A stretch of DNA of 64,000 bases, taken from Methanobacteriota archaeon. Lineage in GTDB: Bacteria; Myxococcota; UBA727; JABDBI01. Position numbers and translations under genes: made by a program. Each line of letters starts with the position of its first letter. The stretch's first letter is position 1. Shown here one piece after another: positions 3-48,046 of the stretch. The DNA is taken from positions 9,078 through 73,077 of the forward strand of contig JABDBI010000006.1 in NCBI GenBank assembly GCA_013288705.1. Direction: 5' to 3'. Below the pieces are notes generated by a model. The model saw only the letters and a program-made list of their open reading frames with translations. It was not told the origin of the DNA and searched no databases.

Positions 3-1526
3 ATCAAATTCGTTGATGGGAACTGCTACGGAATCATTGGCGCAAATGGGGCTGGAAAGTCGACATTTTTGCGAATTCTCTCGGGTGAGCAAGAGCCTTC
101 TTCGGGCGAAGTGCATATTTCCCCCGGCGAAACGCTTTCTGTCTTGAAGCAGGACCAGTTTCGCTACCAGGAAGAAACCGTGCTGCAGACGGTCTTGCTG
201 GGCAATGAAAAGCTTGATGCTGTTGCCAAAGAAAAAGACGCTATTTATGCAAAACCCGACTTTTCTGAGGCCGATGGCAACAGGGCTGCGGAGCTGGAAG
301 CTGAATTCGCTACTCTCGGTGGTTGGGAAGCAGAAACCGATGCGGCAACTTTACTGAACGGGCTTGGAATTGGTGAGGCGCTTTTACAAAAGCAGCTGAA
401 AGAGCTGAAAGATTCGGAAAAAGTCAAAGTACTGCTCGCGCAGGCGCTCTTTGGTAAGCCCAATAATTTGTTGCTGGATGAGCCAACCAATCACTTGGAC
501 GACAAGTCGATTCGTTGGTTGGAAGATTATTTGCTCAACTTCCAAAATACCGTGATTGTTATTTCTCACGATCGTCACTTCTTAAACAAAATTTGCACGC
601 ACATGGTCGATATCGACTATGGCAAGGCCAAGCTTTATGTCGGTAACTACGACTTTTGGCAGCAGTCGAGCCAGTTAGCGCTCGAGTTGCGCAGCAATGA
701 AAACAAGAAAAAAGAAGAGAAAGCCAAGGACCTCGAATCTTTCATTCAACGCTTCAGTGCCAATGCATCCAAGTCGAGCCAAGCGACTTCGCGAAAGAAA
801 CAACTCGAAAAGTTGACGCTGGAAGAATTGCCTATCTCTACCCGTAAGCGTCCCAATATTCTTTTTCAGCAGAAGAGAGATGCGGGCGATATTTTGCTTG
901 AAGTGCAGGGGATTTCTAAATCTATCAACGGCCAGAGAATTCTCAATGACATTTCGTTTTCCGTCAAAAGAGGGAACAAGGCAATTTTCGTTGGGCAAGA
1001 TGAGATTGCCAAAACTACTCTCTTTCAAATCCTCATGGGAGAAATCGAGGCAGACGAGGGCAATTTCCGATGGGGAGTGACGACGAATCAAGCTTATCTT
1101 CCAAAAGATCATAACGCTTATTTTGATGGTAAAGAGCACAACCTCATCGATTGGCTGCGCGAATTTTCGGAGGATAAATCGGAGAATTTTATTCGCAGCT
1201 TCCTCGGGCGCATGCTTTTTTCCGGCGAAGAAACACTGAAGGGCGTCAACGTACTTTCGGGTGGCGAAAGAGTACGTTGCATGTTGGCGAGGATGATGCT
1301 TTTGGGGCCCAATGTGTTGGTGCTCGATGGCCCTACCAATCACTTGGATCTTGAGGCGATTACGGCGTTGAATAATGCTGTGGTGGCTTTTCCGGGGACT
1401 GTGCTGTTGGCAACGCATGATCAGTATTTTGCGCAGACGGTGAGCAATCGCGTCTTTGAATTCAAAGACGCGCAAATGATTGATCACCAAGTTGGCTATG
1501 CAGAATATTTCAAAGAAGACGCTTAG
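3..1526 (+). CDS. ABC-F family ATPase (two nucleotide-binding domains, no membrane domain); 5' end cut by window edge
   Basis: Frame is open from nt 3 (IKFVDGNCYGIIGANGAGKSTFLRIL = Walker A upstream of the listed Met); LLLDEPTNHLD and VLVLDGPTNHLD Walker B motifs, LSGGE signature, charged inter-domain linker (NKKKEEKAKD). Confidence 0.9.
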   Translation: MKFVDGNCYGIIGANGAGKSTFLRILSGEQEPSSGEVHISPGETLSVLKQDQFRYQEETVLQTVLLGNEKLDAVAKEKDAIYAKPDFSEADGNRAAELEAEFATLGGWEAETDAATLLNGLGIGEALLQKQLKELKDSEKVKVLLAQALFGKPNNLLLDEPTNHLDDKSIRWLEDYLLNFQNTVIVISHDRHFLNKICTHMVDIDYGKAKLYVGNYDFWQQSSQLALELRSNENKKKEEKAKDLESFIQRFSANASKSSQATSRKKQLEKLTLEELPISTRKRPNILFQQKRDAGDILLEVQGISKSINGQRILNDISFSVKRGNKAIFVGQDEIAKTTLFQILMGEIEADEGNFRWGVTTNQAYLPKDHNAYFDGKEHNLIDWLREFSEDKSENFIRSFLGRMLFSGEETLKGVNVLSGGERVRCMLARMMLLGPNVLVLDGPTNHLDLEAITALNNAVVAFPGTVLLATHDQYFAQTVSNRVFEFKDAQMIDHQVGYAEYFKEDA

Positions 1527-3090: not shown

Positions 3091-3137
3091 GTAGGCCAGA
3101 ATACCAGAGGTAAAATTAATATGGTACAAGCAGGCCA

Positions 3138-4909: not shown

Positions 4910-4922
4910 AAGGACGCATTCG

Positions 4923-5537
4923 TTATTGTTTTTTATGCGCCTTTTCTTTCTTTTCATCTTCCGGAAATTTCTTGGTAGCGGGCCATAACAGCCGCCATGG
5001 TTCACGTTTAATCACATCGGTGAACTCGCGCGCATTTTTGAGTGTAGCAGCTAGATCTGAGCCAGGACCAGCAAGTTGCTTTAAGCCATCTGTCACAGAT
5101 TCTCCTACATCCGGTATGCGCTCACCAACAAACTCGGTGTGATTAGGTGCCAAACCGCTTTTTTCGTCTCCCTTAAAAAAATCAATGACTCTGACACCCA
5201 TGAGCGTTTGCTGCTTCAGGTGCACCGTCACGTCATTGTAAACGCGTGCGGTGTGATCGACTTTGACGTCGATGGCGGCCTCATAATTCCCATGACCCTT
5301 AGGGCGTTTTTCTACAGGAACTGGCGTATACACGGCGCTTACCTTGCCAATCTCGTTGCCTGCCAAGAGCACCGGCGCTCCTGGGCGTATGCCAGAAGCA
5401 TTGTCGAAATAGATCCGATAGGTGTTCACCTTGGAAATGACGCCCGGTATTCCAATGGCCAGCAAGATGGCGATGACGATCCCGAGGGTGACCAGGGTCA
5501 AGATGCCAGTTGTGACTTCGTTTTTATGAATTTGCAT
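4923..5537 (-). CDS. mlaD: MlaD-like MCE-domain protein (phospholipid ABC transport, periplasmic substrate-binding component)
   Basis: Single N-terminal TM (GILTLVTLGIVIAILLAIG) followed by MCE domain (YRIYFDNASGIRPGAPVLLAGNEIGKV); last gene of mlaE-F-D order; start taken at ATG 5537. Confidence 0.8.
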   Translation of the reverse strand: MQIHKNEVTTGILTLVTLGIVIAILLAIGIPGVISKVNTYRIYFDNASGIRPGAPVLLAGNEIGKVSAVYTPVPVEKRPKGHGNYEAAIDVKVDHTARVYNDVTVHLKQQTLMGVRVIDFFKGDEKSGLAPNHTEFVGERIPDVGESVTDGLKQLAGPGSDLAATLKNAREFTDVIKREPWRLLWPATKKFPEDEKKEKAHKKQ

Positions 5538-6309
5538 GTTTGGGTTCCTTGGCGTGACCATGCGTCAAATACGCAGAAAGAAATTCGTGGACGAATCTAT
5601 TCTTTGACTGACGAAAGTCAGCTGGAGATCCCTCCTCAACGATCTTCCCATCGTGTAACATGGCCATGGATGTAGCAATGCGAAATGCGCTAGGCATCGT
5701 ATGGGTGACGACAATCGATGCCACTTTGTGTTCTTCCCGCAACGCGACGATGAGATCATCGATAAGCACGCTGTTAATGGGATCTAGGCCAGAGGATGGT
5801 TCATCGAAGAGAATAAGAGTAGGCTCCAAAGCCATGGCGCGCGCGAGACCGACACGTTTTTTCATTCCGCCGCTAAGCTCGGAGGGCAGTTGTTCTTTGA
5901 TGTCTTTGAGGCCAACCAATTCGAGCTTGGCATCGACGATTTTATCGATTTCTTTGGCCGTTTTTTTTGACAACTCCCGCAAGGGAAGAGCAATGTTGTC
6001 GTGCACGTTCATGGAGCTCATCAGTGCTGAATATTGATACACCATGCCAATACTCGAACGCATTTCGTTTAATTCATGGCGGTTGAGTTTGGTGATGTCC
6101 TTTCCTTTAAATCGGATTGATCCGTGATCGACTTTCAAAATACCCAGCAAGAGACGCAGAAGTGTGCTTTTACCGCCGCCACTTGGGCCCATGACGACCA
6201 GTGTTTCTTGTGATTTGAGTGAGAGATTCAGGCCATTCATTACGACGTGATCCGCGTAGCGAAATTTCACGTTGTGCATTTCCAGCAAGGTTTCTTGTTG
6301 CGTGATCAT
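5524..6309 (-). CDS. mlaF: MlaF-like ABC transporter ATP-binding protein
   Basis: GPSGGGKST Walker A, LSGGMKKRVGLARA signature, ILFDEPSSGLDP Walker B; ATG 6309 overlaps mlaE stop (ATGA). Confidence 0.85.
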   Translation of the reverse strand: MITQQETLLEMHNVKFRYADHVVMNGLNLSLKSQETLVVMGPSGGGKSTLLRLLLGILKVDHGSIRFKGKDITKLNRHELNEMRSSIGMVYQYSALMSSMNVHDNIALPLRELSKKTAKEIDKIVDAKLELVGLKDIKEQLPSELSGGMKKRVGLARAMALEPTLILFDEPSSGLDPINSVLIDDLIVALREEHKVASIVVTHTMPSAFRIATSMAMLHDGKIVEEGSPADFRQSKNRFVHEFLSAYLTHGHAKEPKHANS

Positions 6310-7097
6310 TTGAATACCGAGACCATGAAAATGTTGCAGAGCGTGTCGCAACCGATCACTGTTGTCACAGCAGTCACGACGCTGGAGGTTGTTGCAGTAC
6401 CTACCCCCGCTGCTCCTCCGCGCACTGCCAGGCCTTTGAAACAGGCGATCCAGCCGATGATTCCCCCAAAGAGAAAACTCTTGATCATGCCTGAGATGAC
6501 ATCCTTGACCAAAAGACTGTCCATGGTCTGGTCGTAAAAGTAGGAGAAATTGAGATCCAACGAGAGATTTGAAATGAACGCTGCACCTACAATGCCTGAG
6601 ACAATTGCCACTACGGAAAGGCAGGGCGTCATAAAAAAAATGGCGAGGAAACGTGGTGTGACGAGATAGCGCAATGGGCCGATTCCCATTCCCTCTATCG
6701 CTTCCACTTCTTCGGAGGCGGTCATTGTTCCTAATTCCGCCGTGTACGATGCCCCAACGCGTGCGGCAAGGACGATGCCTGTCAGCAGTGGCCCCATCTC
6801 ACGGGTGAAAGAGATGACCACCGTGATAGGCACGAGCATCACCATGCCAAAACGTTCAAGTTGGTAGCCGGTCAGAAGGGCCAAGGTCAGGCCGACAAAG
6901 ATCGAAACGAGCGAGACCAAGAAAACAGAGCCCATTCCGACGCGGTCTGTTTGAACGAAAAAATCCGTCAATCGAAACGGGGATTTCTTGGTCGAGATGC
7001 GTTCATAGACCTCTGCAACAGTCTCACGTGCCATCCATACGAGGCTCGAGAGTTCCTGGAGAAAGGCTGTTGTTATGGCTCCCAATTTAGCAATCAC
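6306..7097 (-). CDS. mlaE: MlaE-like ABC transporter permease
   Basis: Polytopic membrane protein, typical MlaE length and position upstream of mlaF/mlaD. Confidence 0.8.
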   Translation of the reverse strand: MIAKLGAITTAFLQELSSLVWMARETVAEVYERISTKKSPFRLTDFFVQTDRVGMGSVFLVSLVSIFVGLTLALLTGYQLERFGMVMLVPITVVISFTREMGPLLTGIVLAARVGASYTAELGTMTASEEVEAIEGMGIGPLRYLVTPRFLAIFFMTPCLSVVAIVSGIVGAAFISNLSLDLNFSYFYDQTMDSLLVKDVISGMIKSFLFGGIIGWIACFKGLAVRGGAAGVGTATTSSVVTAVTTVIGCDTLCNIFMVSVFK

Positions 7098-9951: not shown

Positions 9952-10968
9952 ATGATGCGCCACTATCTTTTATTTGGTACGGTTTTACTTCTGTCGCAGA
10001 TCTCTCAAGCAACACCGTTGCATGACGCCGTTCGGTTTGGCAACAGATGGGCTGCACAGGCGCTGCTAGCAGACGGCGGGGATTTGTATGCAATAGATGC
10101 ACAGCAAAGAACGCCTTTTGCAATTGCCCTTGCAGCAGGCAATCATCAAATGGTCACGCTTTTATTGGTTTGCGCTGTCATGCGCGCACAAAATCGTGGC
10201 CAAGACATTCGCGATGATGCGGCCGTTAGTAGAGTGTTGGCAGAACTTACTCCTCTACTTAACCAGAATCTAGCGGCAACTGTTACGCCGCCTGCCGAGG
10301 TGGAGCATAGCTTTGTGCGTGAGGAAGTCGCTCTCAATCTCGATCCACGCGTCTTTGCGAGTCTGCGTTTTGGTGCCCTTTCGCAGCAAAGCATTATTGA
10401 AGATTCTCTGCATCATGCATCTTTAACTGGTATGGCGTCGATTCTTCCTTTTGCGGTGGGACGTCTAACCCCACTTCGTCAAACAGCGCTCCATCTTTTT
10501 GCCATGCATACCGATCGCCCCTTAATGATCTTCTTGCTTGCAGGATTTGGAGGAAGTATGCACGCGTTGGATCACAATGGTAGAACTGCGTTTGCTGCAG
10601 CACGTGCAGCTGGGCGCGAACGCAATGCACTGGCGCTGCTTCTTTGTATGGTGCGGGAACTCCATGTTGGTCACACACGCATGAATGGAGTTCAGCGCGT
10701 GCGTGATGCATATGTGAATGCAGTTGACGGTGTGCGTAGAATACCCGCTGATCCCATCGATGAAGCAGCACTTTTCGGAATGGTTAATGGTATGATTGGG
10801 TTCTTGCAAACGGTTTTTCATGCTGTCAAAGAGCAAGAAGTAATAGCAATGCGCATGTTTCAAGCTTTATCCCTTCATTACGCTCAACAAAGAGGAGCAT
10901 TGACAATGGTTGGGAGGCCACTTGGTGTGTGGAGTAGCTGTGCTACTTCGGGGTCGGGAATTTGGTGA
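9952..10968 (+). CDS. Ankyrin-repeat protein with signal peptide
   Basis: TPLHDAVRFGNRWAAQALLADGGDLYAIDAQQRTPFAIALAAGNHQMVTLLL and RQTALHLFAMHTDRPLMIFLLAGFGGSMHALDHNGRTAFAAARAAG match the ANK consensus. Confidence 0.75.
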   Translation: MMRHYLLFGTVLLLSQISQATPLHDAVRFGNRWAAQALLADGGDLYAIDAQQRTPFAIALAAGNHQMVTLLLVCAVMRAQNRGQDIRDDAAVSRVLAELTPLLNQNLAATVTPPAEVEHSFVREEVALNLDPRVFASLRFGALSQQSIIEDSLHHASLTGMASILPFAVGRLTPLRQTALHLFAMHTDRPLMIFLLAGFGGSMHALDHNGRTAFAAARAAGRERNALALLLCMVRELHVGHTRMNGVQRVRDAYVNAVDGVRRIPADPIDEAALFGMVNGMIGFLQTVFHAVKEQEVIAMRMFQALSLHYAQQRGALTMVGRPLGVWSSCATSGSGIW

Positions 10969-13772: not shown

Positions 13773-14878
13773 ATGAATAACGTATTATCGAGAATAATTT
13801 TTTGTTGTCTTTTATGTGGCGACGTCAAATCTCAATTGATTGAAGAAGGCGCGAAAAATGGAGAGAGAAAAACGGAGAGATCGGCGAAGAAATTTATCAT
13901 AGCTGCAGCGGTCGTGGGAACGGCAATATATGTGGTGGCAAGTAATTTACCGAGGCAAATTACTTTCAAACAAAATGATCATCTCATCCTTGGCGATGAC
14001 AATGGTTCGCCGTATCATCGCCCGTCAACGGAGCAGAAGTGCTTGCCGAGATGCCAAAAAGGATCGATCGGTGAGCGCACTAAAAGCCTGACTGCGACGG
14101 TTAAGCACACCATGCCGTTGCGCTACCCACATTTGAATAGACATTTGCAGGAGCTTCCTAGTCTCCCAACTTCTGGAACGCTGGTTAACCTCGGGGCTGG
14201 CCTTATCCCTAGCGGAACTGGATTAACGACGTCGACGTTTTCACCGTTCATGCATGAGCTTCTCCGCTTCTTTGCCGGCTATCGCTTTATAGTCGTGGAC
14301 GCGTCCGCAAGCGTTCTGAATGCTCTTCCGTCCAGCGTTTACGATTTTTCTCTGGCACAAAGTGTTGTCGATCGGGAAGGCAATTTTGGTTTTGATGAAG
14401 AAACATATAGAAGAATGCTGGAGACGTTTTTAAGGGGAGTTCCACCGAGAATCGCCCCCAGGGCTTTTGAGAGCATCCAAGCTGATTTTCGGTCCTTTGA
14501 AATCGACGAGAATTCGGTGGATTTTATGTTTGCGTTGCTTTCGCTCAGTCACGCCTTAGATTCTCTAAGCACATCAGGGGGAGGGTTGGCCTCATGCTGA
14601 AGTACTTGAAAGCGCTTAAAGTCGGTGGAAGACTTTATGTAGAAGACAACGTTATTTATGCTTTTTTGCAAGACCTTGGCTTCAGAATGCGTAATCCTGC
14701 GGAGCCATATGTGATCCCCATCGCTGGGAGCCGATTTGAAATGGTGCGCATTCTCTCTCCCGCGCCTGACAGTGGCCAGCGATTTGCAGGCAGAGTGTTA
14801 AAAGGGATTAGGTCAACCAATCCCAATGCTGATGCGCTGCTGTGCCCGGATTTATTTGTTGTGCGAAGGCTCGATTAG
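13773..14878 (+). pseudogene. Class I SAM-dependent methyltransferase-like gene split by a frameshift at a G5 run (ORFs 13773-14600 and 14594-14878)
   Basis: ORF1 has LVNLGAGL (motif I-like), FIVVDAS, SVDFMFALLSLSHAL; ORF2 frame, open from 14501, reads ..GRVGLMLKYLKALKVGGRLYVED (the LKPGG-type post-motif); junction at ggggg 14577-14581. Confidence 0.55.
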
Positions 14879-14930
14879 GCAATTGACCAAGGGCCCTTGC
14901 TCCGGCAATGACAGTGTAAAGGAGCCAGCG

Positions 14931-15740
14931 TTGATAAAACAAGTCATTTTCAGAAGTGTTTTTCTATTAAGCATTCAACTTTTTGCCTGGGCAAGCTTTG
15001 CGCAGATCTATGAAATCAAAAATATGCGCGACATTGTCGCTGAGGTGAAGCCTGGTACCTTGGTGATTTGGGACTTGGATAATACGCTGTATCGGCCGAC
15101 GGGATATTTGGGAAGCCATGAGCACTTTGACTTTTTGCTCCGGATCTATGAGCTCAATGGCCTCAATGCGACCGAGGCACTGAAAGAAGCAGACAGAGTT
15201 TGGAATCTATCGCAAAGCGAGATTCAGGTGCAACCCGTCGAAAAAGACACGCCTGCAATTGTCAAACAGCAACAAGCCAAAAAAATTCGAACGATGGCTC
15301 TTACTGCCCGCTCGACAGCGGTGATGCAAACAACTCAAAAGCAAATCAATTCGATTGGAGTTGATTTCTCAAATCATAGCGTGGCAAACGAAAAAGCAGT
15401 CCTATCGCGAGATACTTTTGGATTGCCAGAAGATGCCATCTTCGAGCGAGGGGTGCTATTTGTTGGTGATACGAACGACAAGGGAATTGTGCTTGAGAAA
15501 TTTCTGAAAGTAGTGGGATATACGCCTAAGAAAATTGTTTTTGTTGATGACCGTGAAAAAAATGTCAAAGACATGGATGCAGTTTTGAAGAGATTAAAAA
15601 TTCCCTACGCCTGCTTTAGATATGGTGCAGCCGATGAGAAAGTATCTTTCTTCAACAAGATCATTGCGGAGCTGAAGGACAAACAGACAGCTGATCTCTT
15701 CTTGTTGGGCAAGGCTCCGAAGGTCGCAGAGGCCAACTAG
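14931..15740 (+). CDS. Secreted HAD-superfamily-like hydrolase
   Basis: aaggag 6 nt before TTG 14931; signal peptide IFRSVFLLSIQLFAWASFA; VIWDLDNTLY (DxDxT motif I), LTARS (motif II), VFVDDREKNV (motif IV-like). Confidence 0.55.
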   Translation: MIKQVIFRSVFLLSIQLFAWASFAQIYEIKNMRDIVAEVKPGTLVIWDLDNTLYRPTGYLGSHEHFDFLLRIYELNGLNATEALKEADRVWNLSQSEIQVQPVEKDTPAIVKQQQAKKIRTMALTARSTAVMQTTQKQINSIGVDFSNHSVANEKAVLSRDTFGLPEDAIFERGVLFVGDTNDKGIVLEKFLKVVGYTPKKIVFVDDREKNVKDMDAVLKRLKIPYACFRYGAADEKVSFFNKIIAELKDKQTADLFLLGKAPKVAEAN

Positions 15741-22173: not shown

Positions 22174-22303
22174 CATTTTCGCACAAATAAAAATAATTTT
22201 GGCAAACATTTGCTTTGATGTCTAACCTTGCTCTAAGATTCATTGGAAGGGACAAATTATGGCAAAAAAGTTGCGTCCAGCGCGGAAAGAGAGGGGAAAC
22301 GGT

Positions 22304-24784
22304 ATGAGAATTTATAGCATGTTTTTTATGAGCCTATTTCTGGCTGTTTCTATAGCCGAATGCGGTAGTAGCTGCACAGGGGGGGCTGGTAGCAGCCTAG
22401 GAGGACTTTCTGGCACCACTGGCACCGCCCCAACCGTGACGTTGACAGTCCCCGCCCCTGGCGAAACACCGGTACCAATCAATAGGAAAATTGTTGCAAC
22501 CTTTAGTCAGGCGATGGACCCTACAACGATCAACGCAACGACCTTTACCTTAATGGCGGGGTCAACACCCGTGCAGGGCACTGTCACTGTTGTTGCCGGC
22601 GTAACGTCCCTGGGCAGTGTTGCGACCTTCACACCCACAAGCAATCTCGCAGTCAGCACCAAATATACCGTGACTATCACGACCGGAGCCAAAAACCTGG
22701 CAGGCAATGCATTGGCTGCTGATTTTGTGTGGAGCTTTACAACGGGTTCAACGACGGACACAACCGCTCCAACCGTGAGTTCTACATACCCTGGCATTGG
22801 TGTCACCGGTGCGTTCATCAACGGGAAGGTTATCGCAACTTTCAGCAAGGCGATGGACCCTGCAACGATCAACGCGACGACGTTTACCTTAATGCAGGGG
22901 TCAACACCCGTTGTGGGCACTGTGGCATGGGCGGGCCTCATTGCGACGTTTACACCAACAAGCAATCTCGCAGTCAGTAGCAAATATACTGCGACAATCA
23001 CAACCGGGGCCAAAGATCTCGCCGGCAATGCGTTGGCTGCCAATTTCGTATGGAGCTTCACAACTGCAGGCGCATCTGGCAGTGGTCCTGGGGGAGGGCC
23101 AACAGATACCACTGCTCCTACCGTGAGTTCGGCTGTCCCCGTCGTGGGTGCCACCAACGTGGCGACCAACTCGCACATCACTGCTGCTTTTAGTAAAGCG
23201 ATGGATCCGCTCACTATCAGCACCAGCACTTTTTTGGTAGCGTGCCCAACCGGAACACCCATTGCAGGCACTGTGAGCTATGCGGTGAGCGGCACTATTG
23301 CAACCTTTATCCCAACGAGTAATCTCCCCGCGACCACGGTCTGCACAGTGACGATTACGTCGGGGGTCAAAGACACTGCAGGCAACGCATTGGCCAGCCC
23401 CTTTAGCTGGACCTTCACGACCGCTGCGGGACCCGATATCACCCCCCCGACCGTGACTTTGACGGCTCCTGTAGCGGGAGCCACCGGTGTGGCGTTGAAC
23501 TCGCTTATCACCACCACGTTCAGTGAATCAATGGATCCTCTCACCATTACCACTGCCACTGTTTTGCTGGCGTGTCCCGCGGGAACAGCTGTTGCTGGCA
23601 CTGTGGGCTACGCGGTGAGCGGCAACAAAGCGACCTTTACACCGACGAGTTCTCTCCCCGCCAGCACGGTCTGCACGGGTACGATCACGACGGGCGTCAA
23701 GGACTTGGCGGGCAATGCATTGGCCAGTCCCTTTACCTGGACCTTTACGACGGGCACAGCTCCTGGCAGTTCGCATCCCACCGTGAGCTCCGTGGTTCCT
23801 CTTGCGGCTGCCATCAATGTGGCGCGGAACCCGCTTATCGCCGCCACGTTCAGCACGGCGATGGACCCGCTCACCATCACCACCGGCACCTACTCGCTGG
23901 CATGTCCTACCGGAACACCCGTTGCGGGCACCATAAGCTTCTCGGGAGCCGGCACCGTCGCGACCTTTACCCCGACGGCCACTCTTCCCGCCAGCACGGT
24001 CTGCACGGGTACGATCACGACAGGCGTCAAGGATACCTCCGGCAATGCCATGGTCAGTCCTTTTACTTGGAGCTTCACAACCGGCACAACTACGACGTCA
24101 TCTCGGGCGAAGGTAAACCTCCTTTCATCTGAGCCTTTTGCTATTCTAACAAAAACGGGAGTTACGGACGTTCCTGCATCTCCCATCACAGGATACGTTG
24201 GAGCTAGTCCAATCACGGGTGCTGCTATTCTTGTAACGTGCGCAGAAGTGAACGGAGGCGTAGTGCCAAACATATACGCCGTCGATGCGGCTGGTCCTGC
24301 TCCATGTAGTTTAGGCGGTGGCGCAAACAAAACATTGGTAGATAACGCTGTAGCTGACATGGTAACCGCGTATGGTGATGCTCAGGGACGGACATTACCT
24401 GATGCTACAGAACTGGGCGCTGGAGAGATTGGCGGGCTAACCATCGTCCCTGGCCTCTTCAAATGGAGCACCGATGTGAATATATCAACAAGTGTCACGT
24501 TATCAGGTAGCGCAACTGATGTCTGGATCTTCCAGATCTCGGGAGATCTTATCATGGCGCCCGGCGTGAGCGTGATCCTGGCAGGTGGTGCAAGCGCCAG
24601 CAATGTCTTCTGGCAGGTCGCTGGGCTTACTGGAGCGACCTTGAATACGACCGCGCACATGGAGGGAACGATACTGTCTGCTAAACAGGTCATTCTGCGT
24701 ACCGGCGCATCGGCGAACAGCAGATTGATGGCACAGACTCAGGTTGTTCTTGACCATAATACGGTTGTAAAACCTGCTCCCTAA
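22304..24784 (+). CDS. Large secreted protein: five tandem SbsA/Big_5-type Ig-like domains plus C-terminal DUF3494 (ice-binding-like) beta-helix
   Basis: Five ~95-110-aa repeats (APTVSS..ATFSKAMDP.TI...TF.L..G.PV.GTV....ATFTPTSNL...T.Y..TITTG.KDLAGNAL...F.WSFTT); C-terminus FAILTKTGVTDVPASPITGYVGASPITG ... NVFWQVAG..TLNTTAHMEGTILSAKQVILRTGA is DUF3494-like. Confidence 0.7.
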   Translation: MRIYSMFFMSLFLAVSIAECGSSCTGGAGSSLGGLSGTTGTAPTVTLTVPAPGETPVPINRKIVATFSQAMDPTTINATTFTLMAGSTPVQGTVTVVAGVTSLGSVATFTPTSNLAVSTKYTVTITTGAKNLAGNALAADFVWSFTTGSTTDTTAPTVSSTYPGIGVTGAFINGKVIATFSKAMDPATINATTFTLMQGSTPVVGTVAWAGLIATFTPTSNLAVSSKYTATITTGAKDLAGNALAANFVWSFTTAGASGSGPGGGPTDTTAPTVSSAVPVVGATNVATNSHITAAFSKAMDPLTISTSTFLVACPTGTPIAGTVSYAVSGTIATFIPTSNLPATTVCTVTITSGVKDTAGNALASPFSWTFTTAAGPDITPPTVTLTAPVAGATGVALNSLITTTFSESMDPLTITTATVLLACPAGTAVAGTVGYAVSGNKATFTPTSSLPASTVCTGTITTGVKDLAGNALASPFTWTFTTGTAPGSSHPTVSSVVPLAAAINVARNPLIAATFSTAMDPLTITTGTYSLACPTGTPVAGTISFSGAGTVATFTPTATLPASTVCTGTITTGVKDTSGNAMVSPFTWSFTTGTTTTSSRAKVNLLSSEPFAILTKTGVTDVPASPITGYVGASPITGAAILVTCAEVNGGVVPNIYAVDAAGPAPCSLGGGANKTLVDNAVADMVTAYGDAQGRTLPDATELGAGEIGGLTIVPGLFKWSTDVNISTSVTLSGSATDVWIFQISGDLIMAPGVSVILAGGASASNVFWQVAGLTGATLNTTAHMEGTILSAKQVILRTGASANSRLMAQTQVVLDHNTVVKPAP
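22427..24105 (+). repeat. Five divergent tandem coding repeats (~290-330 nt each) encoding the Ig-like domains
   Basis: Repeated protein blocks starting at APTVTLTV, APTVSSTY, APTVSSAV, PPTVTLTA, HPTVSSVV. Confidence 0.8.
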
Positions 24785-24962: not shown

Positions 24963-25502
24963 ATGTTGAACTTAAGTCAAACTCATCCAAATCGGATTAC
25001 CGTCGCTGCGATCTCTTTTTTTCTCTCATTTTGTTTGCAAGCACACGCTGCGCAGCCCGAAATGTGCCTAGAAAAACCGGAAGTTATCAGCGAGCGGCTC
25101 GCGCAAGCTGATGACGAATCGGGTGTCGGGCAAAACAACCAAAATGGCGGTAGCCAGGGCGGTGGCAATCAAGGTGGCAACGACCAAGGAGGAAACGGGT
25201 TCGGTGGTAGCGAATTTGGCGGTGGAGGGTTTGGTATCCAGAAGTATAACTCACAAAGCATCGATTTTTACGCTGGAAATGGAGGCAACTACGAATTTGG
25301 CAGCGGCCAAGGAGGATCTGATATCTCGCTGGGTGGTGGCGAAGAGGGGAGCAGCGGTGGTGGTAGCGCAGGCCAAGGCGGTGGCAACAACAACGGTAAC
25401 GGCGACCTATCCACAATGAGTTCATTAACCGCTGCAGGCGCGATAGACCTAGAAGATTTTAGCGGTCTCTCCGCTGGAGGTCTTGCTATTAGCCCGAGCT
25501 GA
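24963..25502 (+). CDS. Secreted Gly/Asn/Gln-rich low-complexity protein
   Basis: Signal peptide (VAAISFFLSFCLQAHA); QNNQNGGSQGGGNQGGNDQGGNGFGGSEFGGGGFG ... GGGNNNGNG. Confidence 0.5.
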   Translation: MLNLSQTHPNRITVAAISFFLSFCLQAHAAQPEMCLEKPEVISERLAQADDESGVGQNNQNGGSQGGGNQGGNDQGGNGFGGSEFGGGGFGIQKYNSQSIDFYAGNGGNYEFGSGQGGSDISLGGGEEGSSGGGSAGQGGGNNNGNGDLSTMSSLTAAGAIDLEDFSGLSAGGLAISPS

Positions 25503-26835
25503 TCCTTTTGAGCCATTTTTCCAAATGGGCAAACATCATTACCATTAGGCATAATCGTTGTAATTCAGGCGGAACACCGTCGCTCTTTTCCATGCATTGA
25601 ACAAGCGCTGGAATATCGATGTAATCCGCGAGCAATCCCTGATGGTTTGGCGTAATTCGCTCAAGAAAAAGTTGCGGCAGTTGTGTAAGAAATGCCGCCA
25701 TAGCAGCGGGAGCGGTGCTGCCCGATTTATTTTGCCTCCACACAATTTCTTTAGGCAGATATGGCTGCATGGCGAGGCGCATGAAATATCGCCCTGTCCC
25801 ATGTCGACGCTTGAAGGAACTCGGCAATGCATGGAAAAACCGCATGAGTGGTGGATGTGCCAATGGAAATTCGTTCCGAATTCCATAGTGCTGTGCAATG
25901 AGTTTCGAGGTCTCTATGCGCAGAGAAAAATGCCGCGATAATGCCCCTTCGACCAAAGCATGTTCAAATTCCCTCACAGTGGAAAAAAAAGGAATCTCGA
26001 TGGGCGGCACCGGAATCCGCAGCAAGGCTGCGTGCTCCTTAGAAATTATAAACGGCAGCGCTGGTTTGGGTTCAAATCGACGGGCTCGCAAACATTCATA
26101 AAAAAATCGCACCCACTTTCTTTTTGTTTTCAATTCGATCAAAAATTCTCTGGCGTGTTGGCTGACCATTTCATCGCCGCCAAATCCTGATAGCAATACG
26201 CTTATACCCATCTGCTGGGCAATTTCATAGGAACGATGGTTGAAAACAGGGAACATGACTTCACTAAATGTGCCGAGAATCTCTGTGTACTTCTCAATGA
26301 CCTCGTGAAATCGAAAACCATCTTCAATTACAACATGTTTTAAACCTAAGGTGTCTGCAACCTGCTGGCTTTGCGACGACTCATCATGCAAAAAGTACTG
26401 AAAAGACGGGTGGGCATATTTTGGAACACCATTGGTGAAAGCAACAATGTCTGCATTTGGGATAGCAGCTCGGGCGAGTGCGGATACCGAGGAGGAATCC
26501 AGGCCGCCACTTAGTTCCACGGCAACTCTTTTATCGCCACCGATGCAGGCTTGCACCGCCGATAGAAGTTCCTGGCGAAACTGTTGTAAGGCAGTGCGCT
26601 TATCGTCTGGGGGTTTAATGGAGGCAAGCGCTATAGAATGCTTGCTTTCAAAAGGAACTCGGTAAATGTCTTTGAAAATTGTTTCAGCGTCATTGGGTGC
26701 AAAAAAATATACCCCTCGCCATAGATAACGTTGAATATAGTCGTGGTTGAAAACGGGCTTTTTATGAAGCTGCCGAATAACCTCTGACAATGAACAGCCA
26801 GAGACCAGAGCCCCATTTTGTTGGGTATAATACAT
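25489..26835 (-). CDS. Asparagine-synthase-family adenylating enzyme lacking the glutaminase domain (lasso-cyclase-like)
   Basis: PP-loop VAVELSGGLDSSSVSALA, LLSGFGGDEMV; only ~110 residues precede the PP-loop and there is no N-terminal Cys nucleophile; ATG 26835 lies 2 nt after the upstream gene's TAA. Confidence 0.7.
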   Translation of the reverse strand: MYYTQQNGALVSGCSLSEVIRQLHKKPVFNHDYIQRYLWRGVYFFAPNDAETIFKDIYRVPFESKHSIALASIKPPDDKRTALQQFRQELLSAVQACIGGDKRVAVELSGGLDSSSVSALARAAIPNADIVAFTNGVPKYAHPSFQYFLHDESSQSQQVADTLGLKHVVIEDGFRFHEVIEKYTEILGTFSEVMFPVFNHRSYEIAQQMGISVLLSGFGGDEMVSQHAREFLIELKTKRKWVRFFYECLRARRFEPKPALPFIISKEHAALLRIPVPPIEIPFFSTVREFEHALVEGALSRHFSLRIETSKLIAQHYGIRNEFPLAHPPLMRFFHALPSSFKRRHGTGRYFMRLAMQPYLPKEIVWRQNKSGSTAPAAMAAFLTQLPQLFLERITPNHQGLLADYIDIPALVQCMEKSDGVPPELQRLCLMVMMFAHLEKWLKRISSG

Positions 26836-26837
26836 GT

Positions 26838-27986
26838 TTACGGAGAAGCGACGGTGCAAGAAGAGTTCAATGTAACCGCGGCACCAGCAATCGCTCTTCC
26901 CACCAGAGCTGCGCTGGTACCGATCGTGATAGAGCCTGCTGCAATCATGGTGCCCTTCATCGTCGAGCTACTTCCTAGAGTCACGCTTGACGCCGCTGTC
27001 CAATAGATGTTTTTAGCCTGCGCGCCATTGATTAAGACGACACTACTCGAGGTTGAGGTGATGATTGTGCTTGTACTCCTGATGAGGAAGACCGCGTTGG
27101 CGTCGTATTGTGCATCAAGAGTCAGGGTGCCACCCCCAGATATCACAATCGTGTTGGCTCCCGAATCATAGAGGCCTGGGGTCAGAGTCTGGCCAGCTAA
27201 ATCACCGGAATTTGAAATCGTAGTAGCAGATCCTTGACCAGTAATACTGGTCGACGCGGAATTGAAATCGCTTTGAGCAGTTGTGAGACGGGCCGAGGCG
27301 CTCACTGCACAGCTCGGGCCAGTCCCGTCTATAGTGTAAATCGTTCCTGTTACTTCACCGCATGTTATTCCAGTTATATTCGTTCCGGAAACCGAGCCCA
27401 ATCCGACATCGCCTGTAACCGAAGTTGGAGCGCCGCTGATCGAAGATTGAGCCAACACAACGAAATTGGAGGACGTCCCAAGAGTGATTGGCGTGCATGT
27501 GGTCCCACCATCTACCAATTGACCGAAAGCGTAAGAAGAGGGCGAGGAACAATTGTTGGCTAAACTTGCGCAATCAAGTGTCAATGCGCTGCTGGCATTG
27601 GAGTGAGAGTACCCATCTGTCCCTTTAATGCAGTTTGCTCCTGTCACGGTACTAAAGCCTGCAAAACTCTCTCCGGATAAGTTGGTGAGATACGTGTATA
27701 GGAGTGTTTGATCGATATAATAATTTTTCCCCGCATGCGAACTGTCGTTGCACCCGCGCGGCACTGCAACCACAGTCGAGGTTGAGCAGCTTCCGGGTTT
27801 TCCGTCGGTGATTTGGAAGGATAATTCCATGTAATTATTGGAGACAGTTGAGGGCGTGGAGAAGGTGAATATTTTGCTCCCCGAAAGTATATGTGGAGGC
27901 AAGCCTTCTTTGGCAATGGAGAAAATATCGACTGCGGCGCCATTCAGTGAAAACAGCGCCATGAGAAAAAAGCAGCCTACTCGCAT
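26838..27986 (-). CDS. Secreted DUF3494 (ice-binding-like) beta-helix protein with Cys-containing N-terminal domain
   Basis: Signal peptide MRVGCFFLMALFSLNGAAV from ATG 27986 (GGAGA 6 nt upstream); LGTSSNFVVLAQSSISGAPTSVTGDVGLGS ... NIYWTAASSVTLGSSSTMKGTMIAAGSITIGTSAALVGRAIA. Confidence 0.7.
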   Translation of the reverse strand: MRVGCFFLMALFSLNGAAVDIFSIAKEGLPPHILSGSKIFTFSTPSTVSNNYMELSFQITDGKPGSCSTSTVVAVPRGCNDSSHAGKNYYIDQTLLYTYLTNLSGESFAGFSTVTGANCIKGTDGYSHSNASSALTLDCASLANNCSSPSSYAFGQLVDGGTTCTPITLGTSSNFVVLAQSSISGAPTSVTGDVGLGSVSGTNITGITCGEVTGTIYTIDGTGPSCAVSASARLTTAQSDFNSASTSITGQGSATTISNSGDLAGQTLTPGLYDSGANTIVISGGGTLTLDAQYDANAVFLIRSTSTIITSTSSSVVLINGAQAKNIYWTAASSVTLGSSSTMKGTMIAAGSITIGTSAALVGRAIAGAAVTLNSSCTVASP

Positions 27987-27996
27987 TGTCCATCTC

Positions 27997-28173
27997 CTAG
28001 CTCTGGGTGGCAGCACCTGTCTGATCTTCGAATAAGTCAGTTCCGGCACCCTGTGTTCCCGTGCTAAAATCGAGTTCTAGAACCTCTGGGGTGCTCCATG
28101 CCTGTTTTTCATTCGGAGCAGAGGTTTCATCAGCGTTCTGCTCAGATGCTTGCGAGGGAGGATCATTTCTCAT
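27997..28173 (-). CDS. 58-aa acidic peptide with lasso-precursor-like features (candidate RiPP precursor)
   Basis: ATG 28173 with GGAGA 7 nt upstream; MRNDPPSQASEQNADETSAPNEKQAWSTPEVLELDFSTGTQGAGTDLFEDQTGAATQS; stop overlaps the SD of the next gene (an in-frame GTG at 28248 would give 83 aa). Confidence 0.45.
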   Translation of the reverse strand: MRNDPPSQASEQNADETSAPNEKQAWSTPEVLELDFSTGTQGAGTDLFEDQTGAATQS

Positions 28174-28387
28174 CAGCTCTTCTCCGCATTTTGGCGGCAC
28201 AGTACAAGCAAAGTCAATCGCAAGCAATCTGATTTTTTTCAGACGCACAGGCTAACAGCCCGTCAATCCTCAATTGTGCAGTAAAAATACCCCATATAGT
28301 TGGCTCGCCTAAATTTATGGTAAAATAATGATCCGTAGATCGCTCGGATTAACCGGGCTAAATTGCGGCAAAATAAAGGAGCAAACA

Positions 28388-33706: not shown

Positions 33707-33995
33707 TGCGCTCGAGCACTTCGGGCGTGCATGAGTGATACCAAATGCCCTCGGGATAAACCACTGCTATAGGCCCACCCACACAGACACGTAGGCAATT
33801 TGCTTTGGTGCGAAACACACCACCTTGCCTCGATAAGTTTAACTCCTCGAGGCGATGCTTCAGGTATTTCCATGCTTCAATGCCGACTTCCCGCTCGCAG
33901 CACTTAGGCTTAGCCTGATCACAACAAAGCAAAATATGGCGCTGGATTTGGTTGAGGCACAGCGCTTCAGCAGCTTGGGCAAGTTTTTTCTTCAT
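33594..33995 (-). CDS. Thioredoxin-fold (2Fe-2S) ferredoxin-like protein
   Basis: [14 protein letters not shown] ... [22 protein letters not shown] pattern; 3' end overlaps recF 3' end by 113 nt (convergent). Confidence 0.55.
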
Positions 33996-35125
33996 GGTAA
34001 AAACTTTCTCGGGTCTTTTAGCTTTTGTGGCAGATATTCTTCCATCACAAAATTAAGCCCGTGCAAACTGAGTGCTTGTTGCTCGGCGCGCACTTCCATT
34101 TTGAGAAGCTTTTGTAATGCATCTTGCCAAGGTTTGTGCGCTTGGAAAAATGGGTCGTTTTTTAGCGCATCGAGGGCACGCTTTCTGTCTTGCTCTCCGA
34201 GAGGATGCGTGGCTTTTTGCAAGCCATATTGATCGATGTCATAGGGTGTCAACCCAAGATAAACGGCCTGCGGAACACAGAAGAATTGATTGATGTGCGC
34301 GGCGTTTCCGGAGCCAACTTTGAGCGTCCGATAAATATTACCAATCCCATAAGGATCGCAATCGGTGAACGCATAGACGGGAATCTTCGCTGTCTCGGAG
34401 AGCCTGCGCACGAAGCGTCTGCAGGCGCGTGTGGGCACGCCACCCATGCTCACCAAAATACAGCTCGCTTTCTTCCAATAGTTGTGGCTCTGCAAGCGTT
34501 GAAACATACCTTGCGTCTCGATGCACAAAATAAACTTGGCTTTGGTTTTGAACTCGAGATGCTCTACCCAAGATGGTACGGCATAAGCTCCAGAGCCAAA
34601 GCGCGTGCAATCGATTTCAATGGCCTCCCCAGATTCTAGATCGTGATCCACCACGACGAGTTCGCCAGCCACAGCGCCACCATGCTGATCGGGGATAAAA
34701 CGCAGCTGTTCGCGCGTGACACCCTCAATCGCAAACATAGCCTCGATGTCATCCATGATGGCGTCGGATTCAGGCTGCTCCAAAAAGCGCGCATCTCCCC
34801 AATTTTTGGACTGATAGTAAGCGTCTCGCTTTGTGGCAAAATCATCATTTTTAACGAGCTCGGTACTCAGCGACATCATCTTTAGCGTTTGCGCAAACGC
34901 CTTCACCGTATTCACACTCAGCGTGCGCTTTTTGACATGCTTGCCGAGCTCAAAGAATCCCATCTTCTTGTCATATTTGACATTACTAAGACTTCTGAGC
35001 GGCATCTTAATATTGGGCGCTTTTTTCTTTTGAATGTCTTGATGAATTTGCAGCGCGCTGCGTGCAATTGCTTCGATGGTGGATTTATCCTTCGCCTCTG
35101 AACCTTTTTGCCTTTTGCCTGCCAT
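33992..35125 (-). CDS. top6A: DNA topoisomerase VI subunit A (Spo11-like)
   Basis: Toprim Glu block [14 protein letters not shown] and DxD block [15 protein letters not shown]; size 377 aa; ATGA-type overlap region with the ferredoxin-like gene downstream. Confidence 0.85.
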
Positions 35126-35128
35126 GGA

Positions 35129-44582: not shown

Positions 44583-45227
44583 ATGCCGGCCCGGATGACG
44601 TCTGCCATGGCCACTTTATTGTGCGTTGATCTCATGTTGATCTCGTTCAGTCGATTTCGCATACTGATCTATTTACTCACCGTTCAGGGAATCATGATTG
44701 GTGCGATGCCATTTCTATTGCGCGACGCCCCTCATTCTTTGTTCGGTTATGGGCTGATGGTGCTTAGCTTAGGTTTGCGCGGTGTGGTGTTTCCATGGCT
44801 TTTATTGGTAGCGTCACGGAAGATTAAGCTCTTGCAGCAGGGTGATTGTGTTCTGCCCCATGCGACGGCGATGGCGCTTGGCATGGGTCTGATCATGTAT
44901 TGTGTGTGGCTGGGTTCTCGTCTGAGCTTGCCCGTACCCCCGATGTCCTCGCTGATGCTTCCAGCTGCGCTTGCAACGATTTTGATGGGGCTCATGTTGA
45001 TTGTGACGAGACGCCATGCGTTATCGCAAGTGCTCGGTTACGTTGTGTTGGAAAACGGCATTTCGTTGCTCGGGATCAGTCTGCATGTGGAAGAAGAAGT
45101 GTTGGTGGAGCTTGGCACGCTCCTCGATGTTTTTGTCGGTGTTTTTGTGATGGGAGTGATGATTTACCACATTCGCCAAGAGTTTGATGCGCTCGACATG
45201 GATCAGCTCTCGGAGCTTCGGGAGTAG
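44583..45227 (+). CDS. HyfE-like membrane subunit
   Basis: 214 aa; SQVLGYVVLENGISLLG ... LVELGTLLDVF as in HyfE. Confidence 0.7.
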   Translation: MPARMTSAMATLLCVDLMLISFSRFRILIYLLTVQGIMIGAMPFLLRDAPHSLFGYGLMVLSLGLRGVVFPWLLLVASRKIKLLQQGDCVLPHATAMALGMGLIMYCVWLGSRLSLPVPPMSSLMLPAALATILMGLMLIVTRRHALSQVLGYVVLENGISLLGISLHVEEEVLVELGTLLDVFVGVFVMGVMIYHIRQEFDALDMDQLSELRE

Positions 45228-45230
45228 GCG

Positions 45231-46589
45231 ATGTTACTTGCATTGTGCTTGCTGCCCGCGGCGGCAGGTCTCGTTAGCTTTCTTCTGCGCTCAGCTCGAG
45301 CCTTGCGTTGGGCATTACTCTTCATCGCGACTGTTCACATTGCTTTGGTGGCATTGGTTTGGATGACGCCACCAGCTCCTGAGTGCGGTGGATGGTTGAT
45401 TCTCGATCATGCGGGTAAAACGATTCTAACAATTACCAGCATCATCTTTTTTGCCTGTTCGTTTTATTGCTTCGATTATCTTAGGCGGGAGAAAGCCCTG
45501 CATGAGGATGCGTCACAATCGCGCTTTGTTGGTTGCATATTGCTTTTCTTTGCTGCCATGAACTTGGTATGTTTGGTGCAAAATCTTGGGTTGCTATGGG
45601 TAGCTATCGAGGCTACCACGCTGGCAAGCGCGCCTCTTATCTATTTTCATCGCACCAGGCGTTCTCTCGAGGCCACATGGAAATATCTTATGATTTGCTC
45701 AGTGGGCATTGCGCTCGCGCTCATTGGCAATTTTGCTTTTATTCTGGCAAGTGCACACCAACTGCCCTTGGTTTGGCTTAAGGCGGGTTTTATTTTCTTG
45801 CTGGTTGGTTATGGCACCAAGATGGGTCTTGCGCCCATACACAGCTGGCTTCCCGATGCGCATAGCGAAGCGCCTTCTCCGATCTCGGCGCTGCTTTCAG
45901 GTGCGTTGCTCAACTGTGCGTTTTTGGGAATTTGGCGAGGGTATCAAGTTTTGCGCTTCGCTGGTTTGTCGGAGTTTGGTGGTGACTTGCTGATGGTCCT
46001 TGGATTTCTGTCGCTTGCGGTAGCAGCAGTATTTTTGCTTCGCTCTACAGATTTTAAGCGCATGCTCGCTTATTCGAGTGTGGAAAACATGGGGCTTTTG
46101 GCGATTGGCATTGGCGCAGGTGGCGCGGGCACGCAGGCCGCGTTTTTGCATGCAGCGAACCACTCATTGACCAAAAGCGCGCTGTTTCTTTTGGCGGGTA
46201 ATATTCTCTCGCGTTTTCATACAAAGTCGACCGAGAGTATCACAGGACTCTCGCAAGAGATGCCTCTCACCGGAGCGATGTGGTTCGCCGGCATTCTGGC
46301 CATTTTGGGTATGCCGCCTTTTGGTATTTTCGTGAGCAAGTTTGCCATTTTGAAATCGGCCTTTGATCGGGGGGGCGCGATATTTGGTTTGACCGTACTT
46401 GTGTTTCTCGCGATTGTTTTTATTGGCATGGTCACTGTGGCGATGCGCATGGTGCAGGGGCCAGCGTCGCTGCCGTCAAATCTGCGCAAGCCCGAGGCTG
46501 TTCTGAGTGTGGCGCCCGCTTTTCTACTGTTGGTCGGCACGCTGGTTTTATGCTTCTATGTGCCACCATTTTTGTTTGAGAACCCATGA
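45231..46589 (+). CDS. HyfF/NuoN/NuoM-like antiporter-type subunit
   Basis: 452 aa; GYGTKMGLAPIHSWLPDAHSEAP, AYSSVENMG. Confidence 0.8.
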   Translation: MLLALCLLPAAAGLVSFLLRSARALRWALLFIATVHIALVALVWMTPPAPECGGWLILDHAGKTILTITSIIFFACSFYCFDYLRREKALHEDASQSRFVGCILLFFAAMNLVCLVQNLGLLWVAIEATTLASAPLIYFHRTRRSLEATWKYLMICSVGIALALIGNFAFILASAHQLPLVWLKAGFIFLLVGYGTKMGLAPIHSWLPDAHSEAPSPISALLSGALLNCAFLGIWRGYQVLRFAGLSEFGGDLLMVLGFLSLAVAAVFLLRSTDFKRMLAYSSVENMGLLAIGIGAGGAGTQAAFLHAANHSLTKSALFLLAGNILSRFHTKSTESITGLSQEMPLTGAMWFAGILAILGMPPFGIFVSKFAILKSAFDRGGAIFGLTVLVFLAIVFIGMVTVAMRMVQGPASLPSNLRKPEAVLSVAPAFLLLVGTLVLCFYVPPFLFENP

Positions 46590-48043: not shown

Positions 48044-48046
48044 GCG

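Follow-up and report, generated by a model that had tools for sequence, protein, structure and literature searches.

In this study, three consecutive genes were analyzed in a 64,000-nucleotide stretch of contig JABDBI010000006.1 (assembly GCA_013288705.1), referred to below as the window. They encode a short peptide (gene A), a secreted protein whose N-terminal part is named X here, and an asparagine-synthase-family enzyme (gene C). The three minus-strand open reading frames (ORFs) of 58, 382, and 448 amino acids were all found at the coordinates given by an earlier note on this DNA, which had described them as a translationally coupled, lasso-peptide-like trio. Coordinates, GGAGA element, overlap of stop codon and Shine-Dalgarno sequence, 2-nt gap, and peptide translation were all exact. 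Gene A starts with ATG at 28173, with GGAGA 7 nt 5' of it, and ends with TAG at 27999–27997. This stop codon sits within TAGGAGA, the Shine-Dalgarno sequence of the 382-residue gene, whose GGAG lies 7 nt ahead of ATG 27986. The start at 27986 was consistent with the N-termini across the X family. The second gene ends with TAA at 26840–26838; after a gap of 2 nt, gene C begins with ATG at 26835 and ends at 25489. The features of the locus are listed in Table 1.

Table 1. Features of the peptide, X, and enzyme locus (positions refer to the window).
Feature	Position	Strand	Remarks
Gene A, precursor peptide, 58 aa + stop	27997..28173	-	Leave-one-out family model; homologues adjoin the enzyme in 9/12 clade loci
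Leader of A, residues 1-41	28051..28173	-	Acidic; K23, W26-x-x-P29-x-V31 (motif of the type recognized by RRE), Thr40 at -2
Predicted 17-aa core of A, GAGTDLFEDQTGAATQS	28000..28050	-	Gly1, Phe7-Glu8-Asp9, Gly12, C-terminal Ser17
X-containing gene, 382-aa secreted protein (signal peptide + X domain + Ice_binding beta-helix)	26838..27986	-	
X domain	27477..27932	-	About residues 19-170; secreted six-cysteine beta-sandwich; conserved partner of peptide and enzyme
Ice_binding (DUF3494) beta-helix	26859..27458	-	Residues 177-376; lineage-specific C-terminal fusion to X
Gene C, 448-aa short lasso-cyclase-like AsnB-family enzyme without glutaminase half	25489..26835	-	
PP-loop SGGLDSS, ATP pyrophosphatase motif	26491..26511	-	Residues 109-115; invariant in 22 clade members
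Promoter-like TTGACT-18 nt-CAAAAT	28188..28217	-	Just 5' of the peptide gene; plausible by position only, weak evidence

The 448-residue enzyme matched only Asn_synthase (PF00733) in Pfam, with an E value of 4.5e-33. Both the PP-loop and the GFGGDE motif were kept. The alignment with the AsnB model TIGR01536 began at model position 148 and scored 94.2 bits against a cutoff of 267.1; the N-terminus of the protein is MYYTQQ. Because the alignment begins at this position, the enzyme lacks the glutaminase half and the Cys nucleophile, and its description as an AsnB-type enzyme without glutaminase was correct. The best NCBIfam model was the lasso cyclase model NF033535 (E 2e-30), and the nearest relatives outside the clade described below stood beside PqqD and transglutaminase-type genes; both results support the proposed likeness to lasso cyclases, against which stand a score far below the curated cutoff and the missing N-terminal half. 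Against a grouping with exopolysaccharide (EPS) amidotransferases, named in advance as refuting, the corresponding model TIGR03108 scored only 47.9 bits with a cutoff of 816.9. The AlphaFold2 (AF2) model of the enzyme had a mean predicted local distance difference test score (pLDDT) of 88.6. The nearest solved folds were those of TsnB9, beta-lactam synthetase, carbapenam synthetase (CarA), and AsnB, at 14–20% identity.

A search of 5.8 billion proteins returned a sharply delimited clade of about 26 proteins of 448–500 residues, which matched PF00733 only and were 36–49% identical to the window enzyme. Below the clade, the score dropped from 195 to 125 bits, and the next proteins had 600–650 residues and GATase domains. 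No GATase Pfam domain was found in any clade member. All 22 clade members tested matched NF033535, which gave the best E value of any family (3.9e-43), with TIGR01536 a close second. The named sources were a Legionella sp. metagenome-assembled genome (MAG) and Gammaproteobacteria MAGs, and the proteins are labeled by NCBI as hypothetical.

The leader of the window peptide reads W26-S-T-P29 and has Thr40 at position -2, as lasso leaders do; the spacing is 1–2 residues shorter than the canonical Y(-17)/P(-14). The core begins with Gly1 and has Glu8 and Asp9, in keeping with lasso cores, which have Gly, Ala, Ser, or Cys at position 1 and Asp or Glu at positions 7–9. W/Y/LxxP is a known recognition sequence of the RRE (the recognition element of RiPPs, peptides that are synthesized by the ribosome and modified post-translationally) (PMC12710340). 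Lasso peptides are defined by a ring of 7–9 residues closed onto Asp or Glu (PMC8498205), and both the ring size and the first residue of the window core fit this definition. The C-terminal Ser is the residue phosphorylated by the kinases of kinase-bearing lasso clusters (PMC8498205).

Twelve distinct loci of the enzyme clade were examined: the window, L001, L003, L005, L087–L093, and L095. A homologous short ORF was present in nine of them, and no precursor was identifiable in L091, L001, or L093. Across the nine peptides, the P of the leader motif was invariant and the W nearly so (Y in L092), and Thr(-2) was kept in seven, with Val or Ile in the other two. The consensus of the clade cores was G1-x5-F7-E8-D9-x-x-G12-[IA]-[AS]-x0-2-S, with E, G, and the C-terminal S invariant. 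A hidden Markov model (HMM) was built from the eight peptides of the other loci, leaving out the window. It matched the window peptide at E 4e-10, and the next best of 920 window ORFs was at 0.64. HMMs from six seeds independently recovered the peptides of L090 (6e-13) and L092 (9.7e-5). The window peptide had no Pfam or NCBIfam match, and NCBI annotates its homologues as hypothetical proteins. The earlier note had cautioned that the small ORF could be fortuitous, and had named its absence at related loci as refuting; the leave-one-out result and the homologues at nine loci dispose of that caution. Its description as lasso-precursor-like was strengthened, since beyond the leader motif, Thr(-2), Gly1, and Glu8/Asp9, homologues of the peptide serve as precursors in canonical lasso clusters. 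A further caveat, that the tail QTGAATQS has no bulky plug residues, is shared here: the window tail DQTGAATQS has no large side chain, and the other clade tails carry Ile, His, Phe, Met, or Arg.

The 382-residue protein begins with the signal-like segment MRVGCFFLMALFSLNGAA. It matched PF11999 (Ice_binding/DUF3494) over residues 177–376 with an E value of 1.7e-40 and 139.4 bits against a cutoff of 28.7, a membership that applies only to its C-terminal half. In eight of the 12 loci, a gene for a protein of about 160 residues, which aligns with residues 1–170 of the window protein, adjoins the enzyme gene. All members of this X family had a signal peptide, six conserved Cys, and the motifs FSFTTP and HAGKTYYIS..LY. 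An X HMM built without L090 and L092 recovered their X genes at 2.8e-24 and 1.3e-22. The X of L095 was a divergent member of 196 residues (E 6.5e-4) in the same operon position. An exhaustive profile search of 1.84 billion cluster representatives gave 29 X matches, three of them spurious and partial: P0127, P0144, and P0149 (1,100–1,700 residues) matched profile positions 13–80 only and were rejected as cadherin-like repeat proteins. A single-sequence search with the X domain gave no match, an ordinary profile search returned only its own seeds, and none of 23 X members had a Pfam match at E values up to 1. The AF2 model of X (pLDDT 82) was a beta-sandwich with one long helix, for which no PDB fold match was better than E 0.17. 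Pilins and adhesins were discarded as fold relatives, with E values of 0.17 or worse and probabilities of 0.15 or lower that were judged meaningless. X is a new secreted domain family without a Pfam model or a detectable structural relative in the PDB.

The fusion of X to Ice_binding was found in the window protein only, and two other X proteins carried unrelated extensions without a Pfam match; X proteins otherwise stand alone. The proposal of a secreted DUF3494 partner therefore stood in part: the protein is secreted and has DUF3494, but the conserved element is the N-terminal X of about 150 residues, to which the helix is fused only in the window. The same applies to the suggestion that homologues of the enzyme might regularly follow a DUF3494 gene and a short ORF, for which the short ORF was found as expected and the partner proved to be X, not DUF3494. 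A second Ice_binding domain is found nearby, in a secreted protein of 841 residues with five Big_5 domains (22259–24784, plus strand). Recent duplication from this neighboring domain was rejected, as the two are only 29% identical. The 841-residue gene is followed by a Gly-rich secreted ORF of 179 residues (24963–25502, plus strand), which runs toward the enzyme gene and shares 14 nt with the 3' end of that gene.

X was rejected as a leader peptidase: it is exported, only its cysteines are invariant, and the His of the HAG motif is not conserved. Apart from the disulfide cysteines, a Cys/His/Asp triad is not conserved in X. In most X proteins, the mature N-terminus reads (S/N)-L-W-[DEQ]-[IYV]-A-x-P, and that of the window protein (27870–27932) reads D-I-F-S-I-A-K-E. 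This N-terminus resembles the leader motif W-x-x-P-x-[LVI], and the resemblance could be coincidence or leader mimicry.

Peptide, X, and enzyme were tightly linked in eight of the 12 clade loci, which supports the claim of a conserved trio. The gene order was A-X-C in the window, L089, L092, and L095; X-A-C in L088 and L090; and X-X-A-C in L003, where two tandem X paralogues (4487–5520) stand 5' of the peptide. L090 was the single locus yielded by a metagenome scan with the family-specific block FSEV[LM]FP. The intergenic gaps were mostly between -20 and about +40 nt, with an X/enzyme overlap of 1 nt in L089 and a gap of 0 nt in L095. The flanking genes were unrelated from locus to locus; therefore, A, X, and C behave and move as one unit. 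In a neighbor-joining tree, the trio was spread over the whole clade, including the most basal member, P0024 of L095, which makes the A-X-C architecture ancestral to the clade. In L087, peptide and enzyme occur but X does not. In L005 (2600–9400), a kinase, PqqD, X, C, a sulfotransferase, and a second kinase-like gene are found, with a 37-residue precursor on the opposite strand. L091 (2900–6100) has PqqD, a kinase, a Transglut_core3 peptidase, and C, and no X. In L094, a lone X (1–1033) lies beside a fragment resembling an IS607-type serine recombinase. A 535-residue protein resembling the major facilitator superfamily (MFS) lies upstream of X-A-C in L088 (3595–5202), an MFS gene lies beside the clade enzyme in L093 (4577–5764), and a MacAB-TolC-like set is convergent with the lone enzyme in L001 (7451–13431). 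No exporter could be assigned, because these neighboring transporters are not conserved across loci.

Genome contigs were scanned with the full enzyme alignment through the generic patterns ELSGGLDSS and SGFGGDE, and the nearest non-clade relatives among the matches listed, 80 loci, were used as the outgroup. The outgroup enzymes were 21–31% identical to the window enzyme and mostly from Bacteroidales. Iterated profiles for PqqD (B1), the transglutaminase-type leader peptidase (B2), kinase, and sulfotransferase took the accessory proteins of L005 and L091 as seeds. Of the 80 listed loci, 46 had PqqD, 38 had B2, 50 had an HPr-kinase homologue, and 42 had a sulfotransferase. B1 or B2 was present in 47 of the 80, versus 2 of the 12 clade loci, where PqqD was linked in L005 and L091 only and B2 in L091 only. 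The clade peptide HMM matched at least 20 small ORFs in the outgroup clusters (E 0.01 or better; 16,427 ORFs searched), and these precursor-like ORFs read K-W-x-x-P-x-L...T-x-G-G...[ED]...S. X was not found in any of the 80 listed loci. Kinase- and sulfotransferase-type lasso clusters have already been described (PMC8498205, PMC4289311). Because the outgroup clusters are canonical and the peptide HMM matches there, the window genes A and C are homologous to true genes for lasso precursors and cyclases. Dozens of Bacteroidales MAG loci (L008–L086) carry B2, PqqD, sulfotransferase, kinase, and cyclase genes, with precursors that combine a K-W-x-x-P leader with a C-terminal Ser. Insertion sequence elements flank a lasso cluster of Amoebophilus asiaticus, an amoeba symbiont in the Bacteroidota (PMC3423634); together with the Bacteroidales clusters, this case hints at transfer among amoeba-associated bacteria. 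The best match of the genome scan, L007 (Coxiellaceae), was rejected: its AsnB-like protein is full-length (574 residues) and lies beside LolCD, with no peptide, X, or B genes.

Accessory genes were sought in the window by searching 67 non-overlapping ORFs of at least 70 residues against Pfam and all ORFs of at least 60 residues against the iterated profiles. Neither method detected PqqD (PF05402) in the 64 kb. No Transglut_core was found in the 67 ORFs, and the iterated B2 profile had no match in the window. Kinase and sulfotransferase were likewise not found there by iterated profiles; the peptide has the C-terminal Ser of kinase-modified (paeninodin-type) precursors, and an HPr-kinase homologue was not found in the window. 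No prolyl-oligopeptidase-like isopeptidase was seen in the 64 kb, and the only ATP-binding cassette (ABC) proteins were ABC-F (69..1526) and MlaF/E/D (4923..7097), neither of which is a peptide exporter. The statement that the 64 kb contain no leader peptidase, RRE, isopeptidase, or exporter was thus borne out. The B-free architecture holds for the window but not for the whole clade, since L091 has PqqD, B2, and a kinase, and L005 has PqqD, kinases, and a sulfotransferase. The gene at 1582–3138 (minus strand), 22 kb from the operon, encodes a cysteine protease of the papain family (Peptidase_C1) that also has a bacterial Ig domain; this protein is not a lasso peptidase of the transglutaminase type.

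The trio is probably a lasso-peptide-type RiPP module of the unusual make-up A-X-C. A would be the precursor, with a leader carrying the W-x-x-P motif and Thr(-2) and a 17-residue core that begins at Gly1. C would be a shortened lasso cyclase, which by homology is expected to adenylate the side chain of Glu8 (Asp9 is less likely) and to close an eight-residue macrolactam onto the alpha-amine of Gly1 after leader removal. Leader processing would most probably fall to an RRE and a peptidase whose genes lie elsewhere in the genome, or to some other protease. Since W-x-x-P and Thr(-2) are conserved, RRE and peptidase presumably still act, and trans-encoded B proteins are a live possibility because the conserved motif is an RRE recognition sequence and L091 and L005 carry B proteins. 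X is predicted to be a Sec-exported, disulfide-rich domain, fused here to a DUF3494 beta-helix, that has probably been passed on together with A and C ever since the clade arose. Being exported and disulfide-rich, X cannot take part in the ATP-dependent chemistry. Since X is inherited together with A and C and the core is unusually conserved, X may be an extracytoplasmic partner of the product, most likely one dedicated to the mature peptide, with a role in binding, carriage, or immunity. The observation made in the earlier note is confirmed and its interpretation is largely right, with two refinements: the conserved partner is X rather than DUF3494, and the clade is not uniformly B-free.

Several results weigh against this explanation. 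The window enzyme scored 105.9 bits with NF033535, far below the curated cutoff of 525 and only slightly above its score with the AsnB model. The lack of a bulky plug residue in the window tail makes a threaded lasso doubtful, and the strong conservation of the core across the clade is atypical of lasso antibiotics. The link between X and the enzyme is not absolute: the enzyme occurs without X in L001, L087, L091, and L093, and X stands by itself, lacking both peptide and enzyme, on the 4.5-kb contig of L094. A leader peptidase and an RRE are held to be required in every characterized lasso pathway (PMC8498205), and neither was detected across the window or in about 6 kb on each side of six further trio loci. 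With no exporter in the operon, there is no evident route by which a cytoplasmic product would meet the secreted X.

The scarcity of linked B genes could also mean that the module is self-sufficient and B-independent. The peptide would then be matured by the short cyclase, perhaps aided by X or a housekeeping protease, without the PqqD/transglutaminase pair, or another chemistry would operate on the F-E-D motif or the C-terminal Ser carboxylate, for example amidation or ligation to another amine. The product would be a conserved ligand or cofactor for the secreted X, not a classical threaded lasso antibiotic. We consider this rather unlikely. It is favored by the compactness of A-X-C among unrelated flanks in eight loci including the basal L095, by the counts of linked B2 (1/12) and B1 (2/12) against those of the outgroup, and by B2 and X never occurring together in the loci examined; the core as conserved as in cofactor-yielding peptides, the tail without plug residues, the loss of the glutaminase-like N-terminal half, and the gain of X point the same way. 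However, 12 loci are too few for the exclusivity of B2 and X to mean anything. L005 keeps PqqD beside X, and the equally short cyclase of L091 sits in a cluster with B1 and B2. The leader still has W-x-x-P, which is recognized by RREs (PMC12710340), and Thr(-2), which argues that RRE and peptidase still act. The core offers no conserved amine other than its N-terminus for an alternative lactam, and X lacks a catalytic triad and is exported away from ATP. A related account is put forward tentatively, as possible though not likely: A-X-C may be a self-contained lasso-derived system without the PqqD/transglutaminase pair, in which the shortened cyclase makes a small, conserved acidic macrolactam that forms a physiological pair with the secreted X and is not an antibiotic. 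The pairing could take the form of ligand and receptor, carrier, or prosthetic peptide, and its site could be the cell surface or the host vacuole of Legionella-like intracellular bacteria.

That the real substrate of the enzyme is the X protein or a non-peptide molecule, with the small peptide in a regulatory or accessory role, is very unlikely. X and enzyme genes are indeed adjacent and often overlapping or nearly so (L089, L095, and the window), and the mature N-terminus of X, LW[DEQ][IYV]A.P, is vaguely leader-like. Yet the peptide has homologues among true lasso precursors and retains Gly1 and Glu8, and the occurrence of both A-X-C and X-A-C orders rules out a simple upstream-ORF role for it. 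L087 has peptide and enzyme without X, and X is a Sec substrate whose disulfide folding takes place outside the cytoplasm. The view that the trio is what is left of a canonical lasso cluster, now without B, kinase, and sulfotransferase genes and without a product, would agree with the canonical clusters of the relatives and with the clade loci that have the enzyme alone (L001, L093). Against it, the three ORFs are intact at loci whose enzymes are only 36–49% identical, the catalytic motifs and peptide residues are invariant, translational coupling is maintained, and X was gained, which mere loss does not explain; such a remnant is highly improbable. Chance occurrence of the small ORF beside a housekeeping or EPS amidotransferase could appeal to the lack of Pfam and NCBIfam matches and the hypothetical labels of the homologues. 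It is effectively refuted by the leave-one-out HMM and the retention of the peptide at nine loci, and the enzyme has no glutaminase domain and a TIGR03108 score far below the cutoff.

Among known systems, the closest are the class II HPr-kinase/sulfotransferase (paeninodin-like) clusters, which occur in Firmicutes, Proteobacteria, and, in the present data, many Bacteroidales MAGs. They have a homologous precursor (K-W-x-x-P, Thr(-2), Gly1, Glu/Asp at 8–9, C-terminal Ser), their cyclase is the nearest relative of gene C, and two clade loci keep PqqD and a kinase, L005 with a sulfotransferase and L091 with B2 in addition. The window and most clade loci differ from them in having no linked B1, B2, kinase, sulfotransferase, or exporter. 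The clade cyclase is also shorter by about 150 N-terminal residues, its core peptide is conserved and not hypervariable, and it has an obligate-looking neighbor, X, which was not found in the 80 listed outgroup loci. The microcin J25 and capistruin systems (genes A to D) likewise consist of a ribosomal precursor and an AsnB-like ATP-dependent cyclase that forms a macrolactam of 8–9 residues from the N-terminus to Glu or Asp; unlike them, the window has no fused B, no ABC exporter/immunity gene D, and no plug residues, and it has an extra secreted partner. AsnB, beta-lactam synthetase, carbapenam synthetase, and TsnB9 share the synthetase-domain fold and PP-loop and gave the best Foldseek and sequence matches in the PDB. 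They differ in identity (14–20%) and in the N-terminal nucleophile (Ntn) glutaminase with its Cys, which the window enzyme lacks, and the context in the window is a peptide precursor, not amino-acid or beta-lactam metabolism. Through its C-terminal half, the middle protein clearly belongs to the DUF3494/ice-binding-like proteins, but the helix is not a conserved element of the system.

Pyrroloquinoline quinone (PQQ) with PqqA, and mycofactocin with MftA, can be compared by analogy only. These systems also have a small precursor, a strongly conserved core, and an RRE-type W/YxxP leader motif. In the case of PQQ, an extracytoplasmic protein uses the product, which offers an analogy for X. The enzymes of the window are not homologous to theirs, no radical SAM enzyme is involved, and binding of a product by X would be speculative.

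In the searchable literature on lasso peptides in Legionella, Legionellales, and Coxiellaceae and on B-less or orphan cyclases, no description of the A-X-C architecture was found, in line with the earlier statement that no described system of this kind was known. A and C are components of a known kind; the conserved association with X, the shortened cyclase, and the general lack of linked B1 and B2 are new. Tools for lasso mining, among them RODEO and the antiSMASH lasso rule, depend on the co-occurrence of B and C genes. A conserved clade with precursor and cyclase but no B would be invisible to such tools. If the module were self-sufficient, the minimum now accepted as necessary for lasso biosynthesis would have to be revised. 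The genomic association of X gives a testable hypothesis, namely that X binds the peptide, and the three genes are small and suited to heterologous expression. A conserved pair of secreted peptide and protein in Legionella-like bacteria could bear on host interaction.

Promoter-like sites in the region, such as the one in Table 1, were no commoner than in shuffled sequence. Elsewhere in the window, an ankyrin-repeat protein is encoded at 9952–10968 (plus strand) and a DUF2608 protein at 14826–15740 (plus strand). Together with the papain-like protein and the source names of the homologues (Legionella sp., Gammaproteobacteria MAGs), these suggest a Legionellales-like host. At 33992–36979 (minus strand), topoisomerase VI is encoded by neighboring genes for its subunits A (TP6A_N, Toprim) and B (Topo-VIb transducer, HATPase), which is unusual for a gammaproteobacterial context. 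A seven-gene cluster at 41812–48805 (plus strand) resembles an Mrp/Nuo or group-4 [NiFe]-hydrogenase membrane complex; its domains are Proton_antipo_M (twice), NADHdh, Oxidored_q2, Complex1_49kDa, and Oxidored_q6 with Fer4, and its AT skew is strongly negative, down to -0.33. A 325-residue ORF at 40817–41794 (plus strand) has collagen-like repeats and a C-terminus weakly resembling a type III secretion system needle protein. A Pretoxin-HINT domain protein is encoded at 50583–51671 (minus strand), downstream of a 708-residue ORF without a family match.

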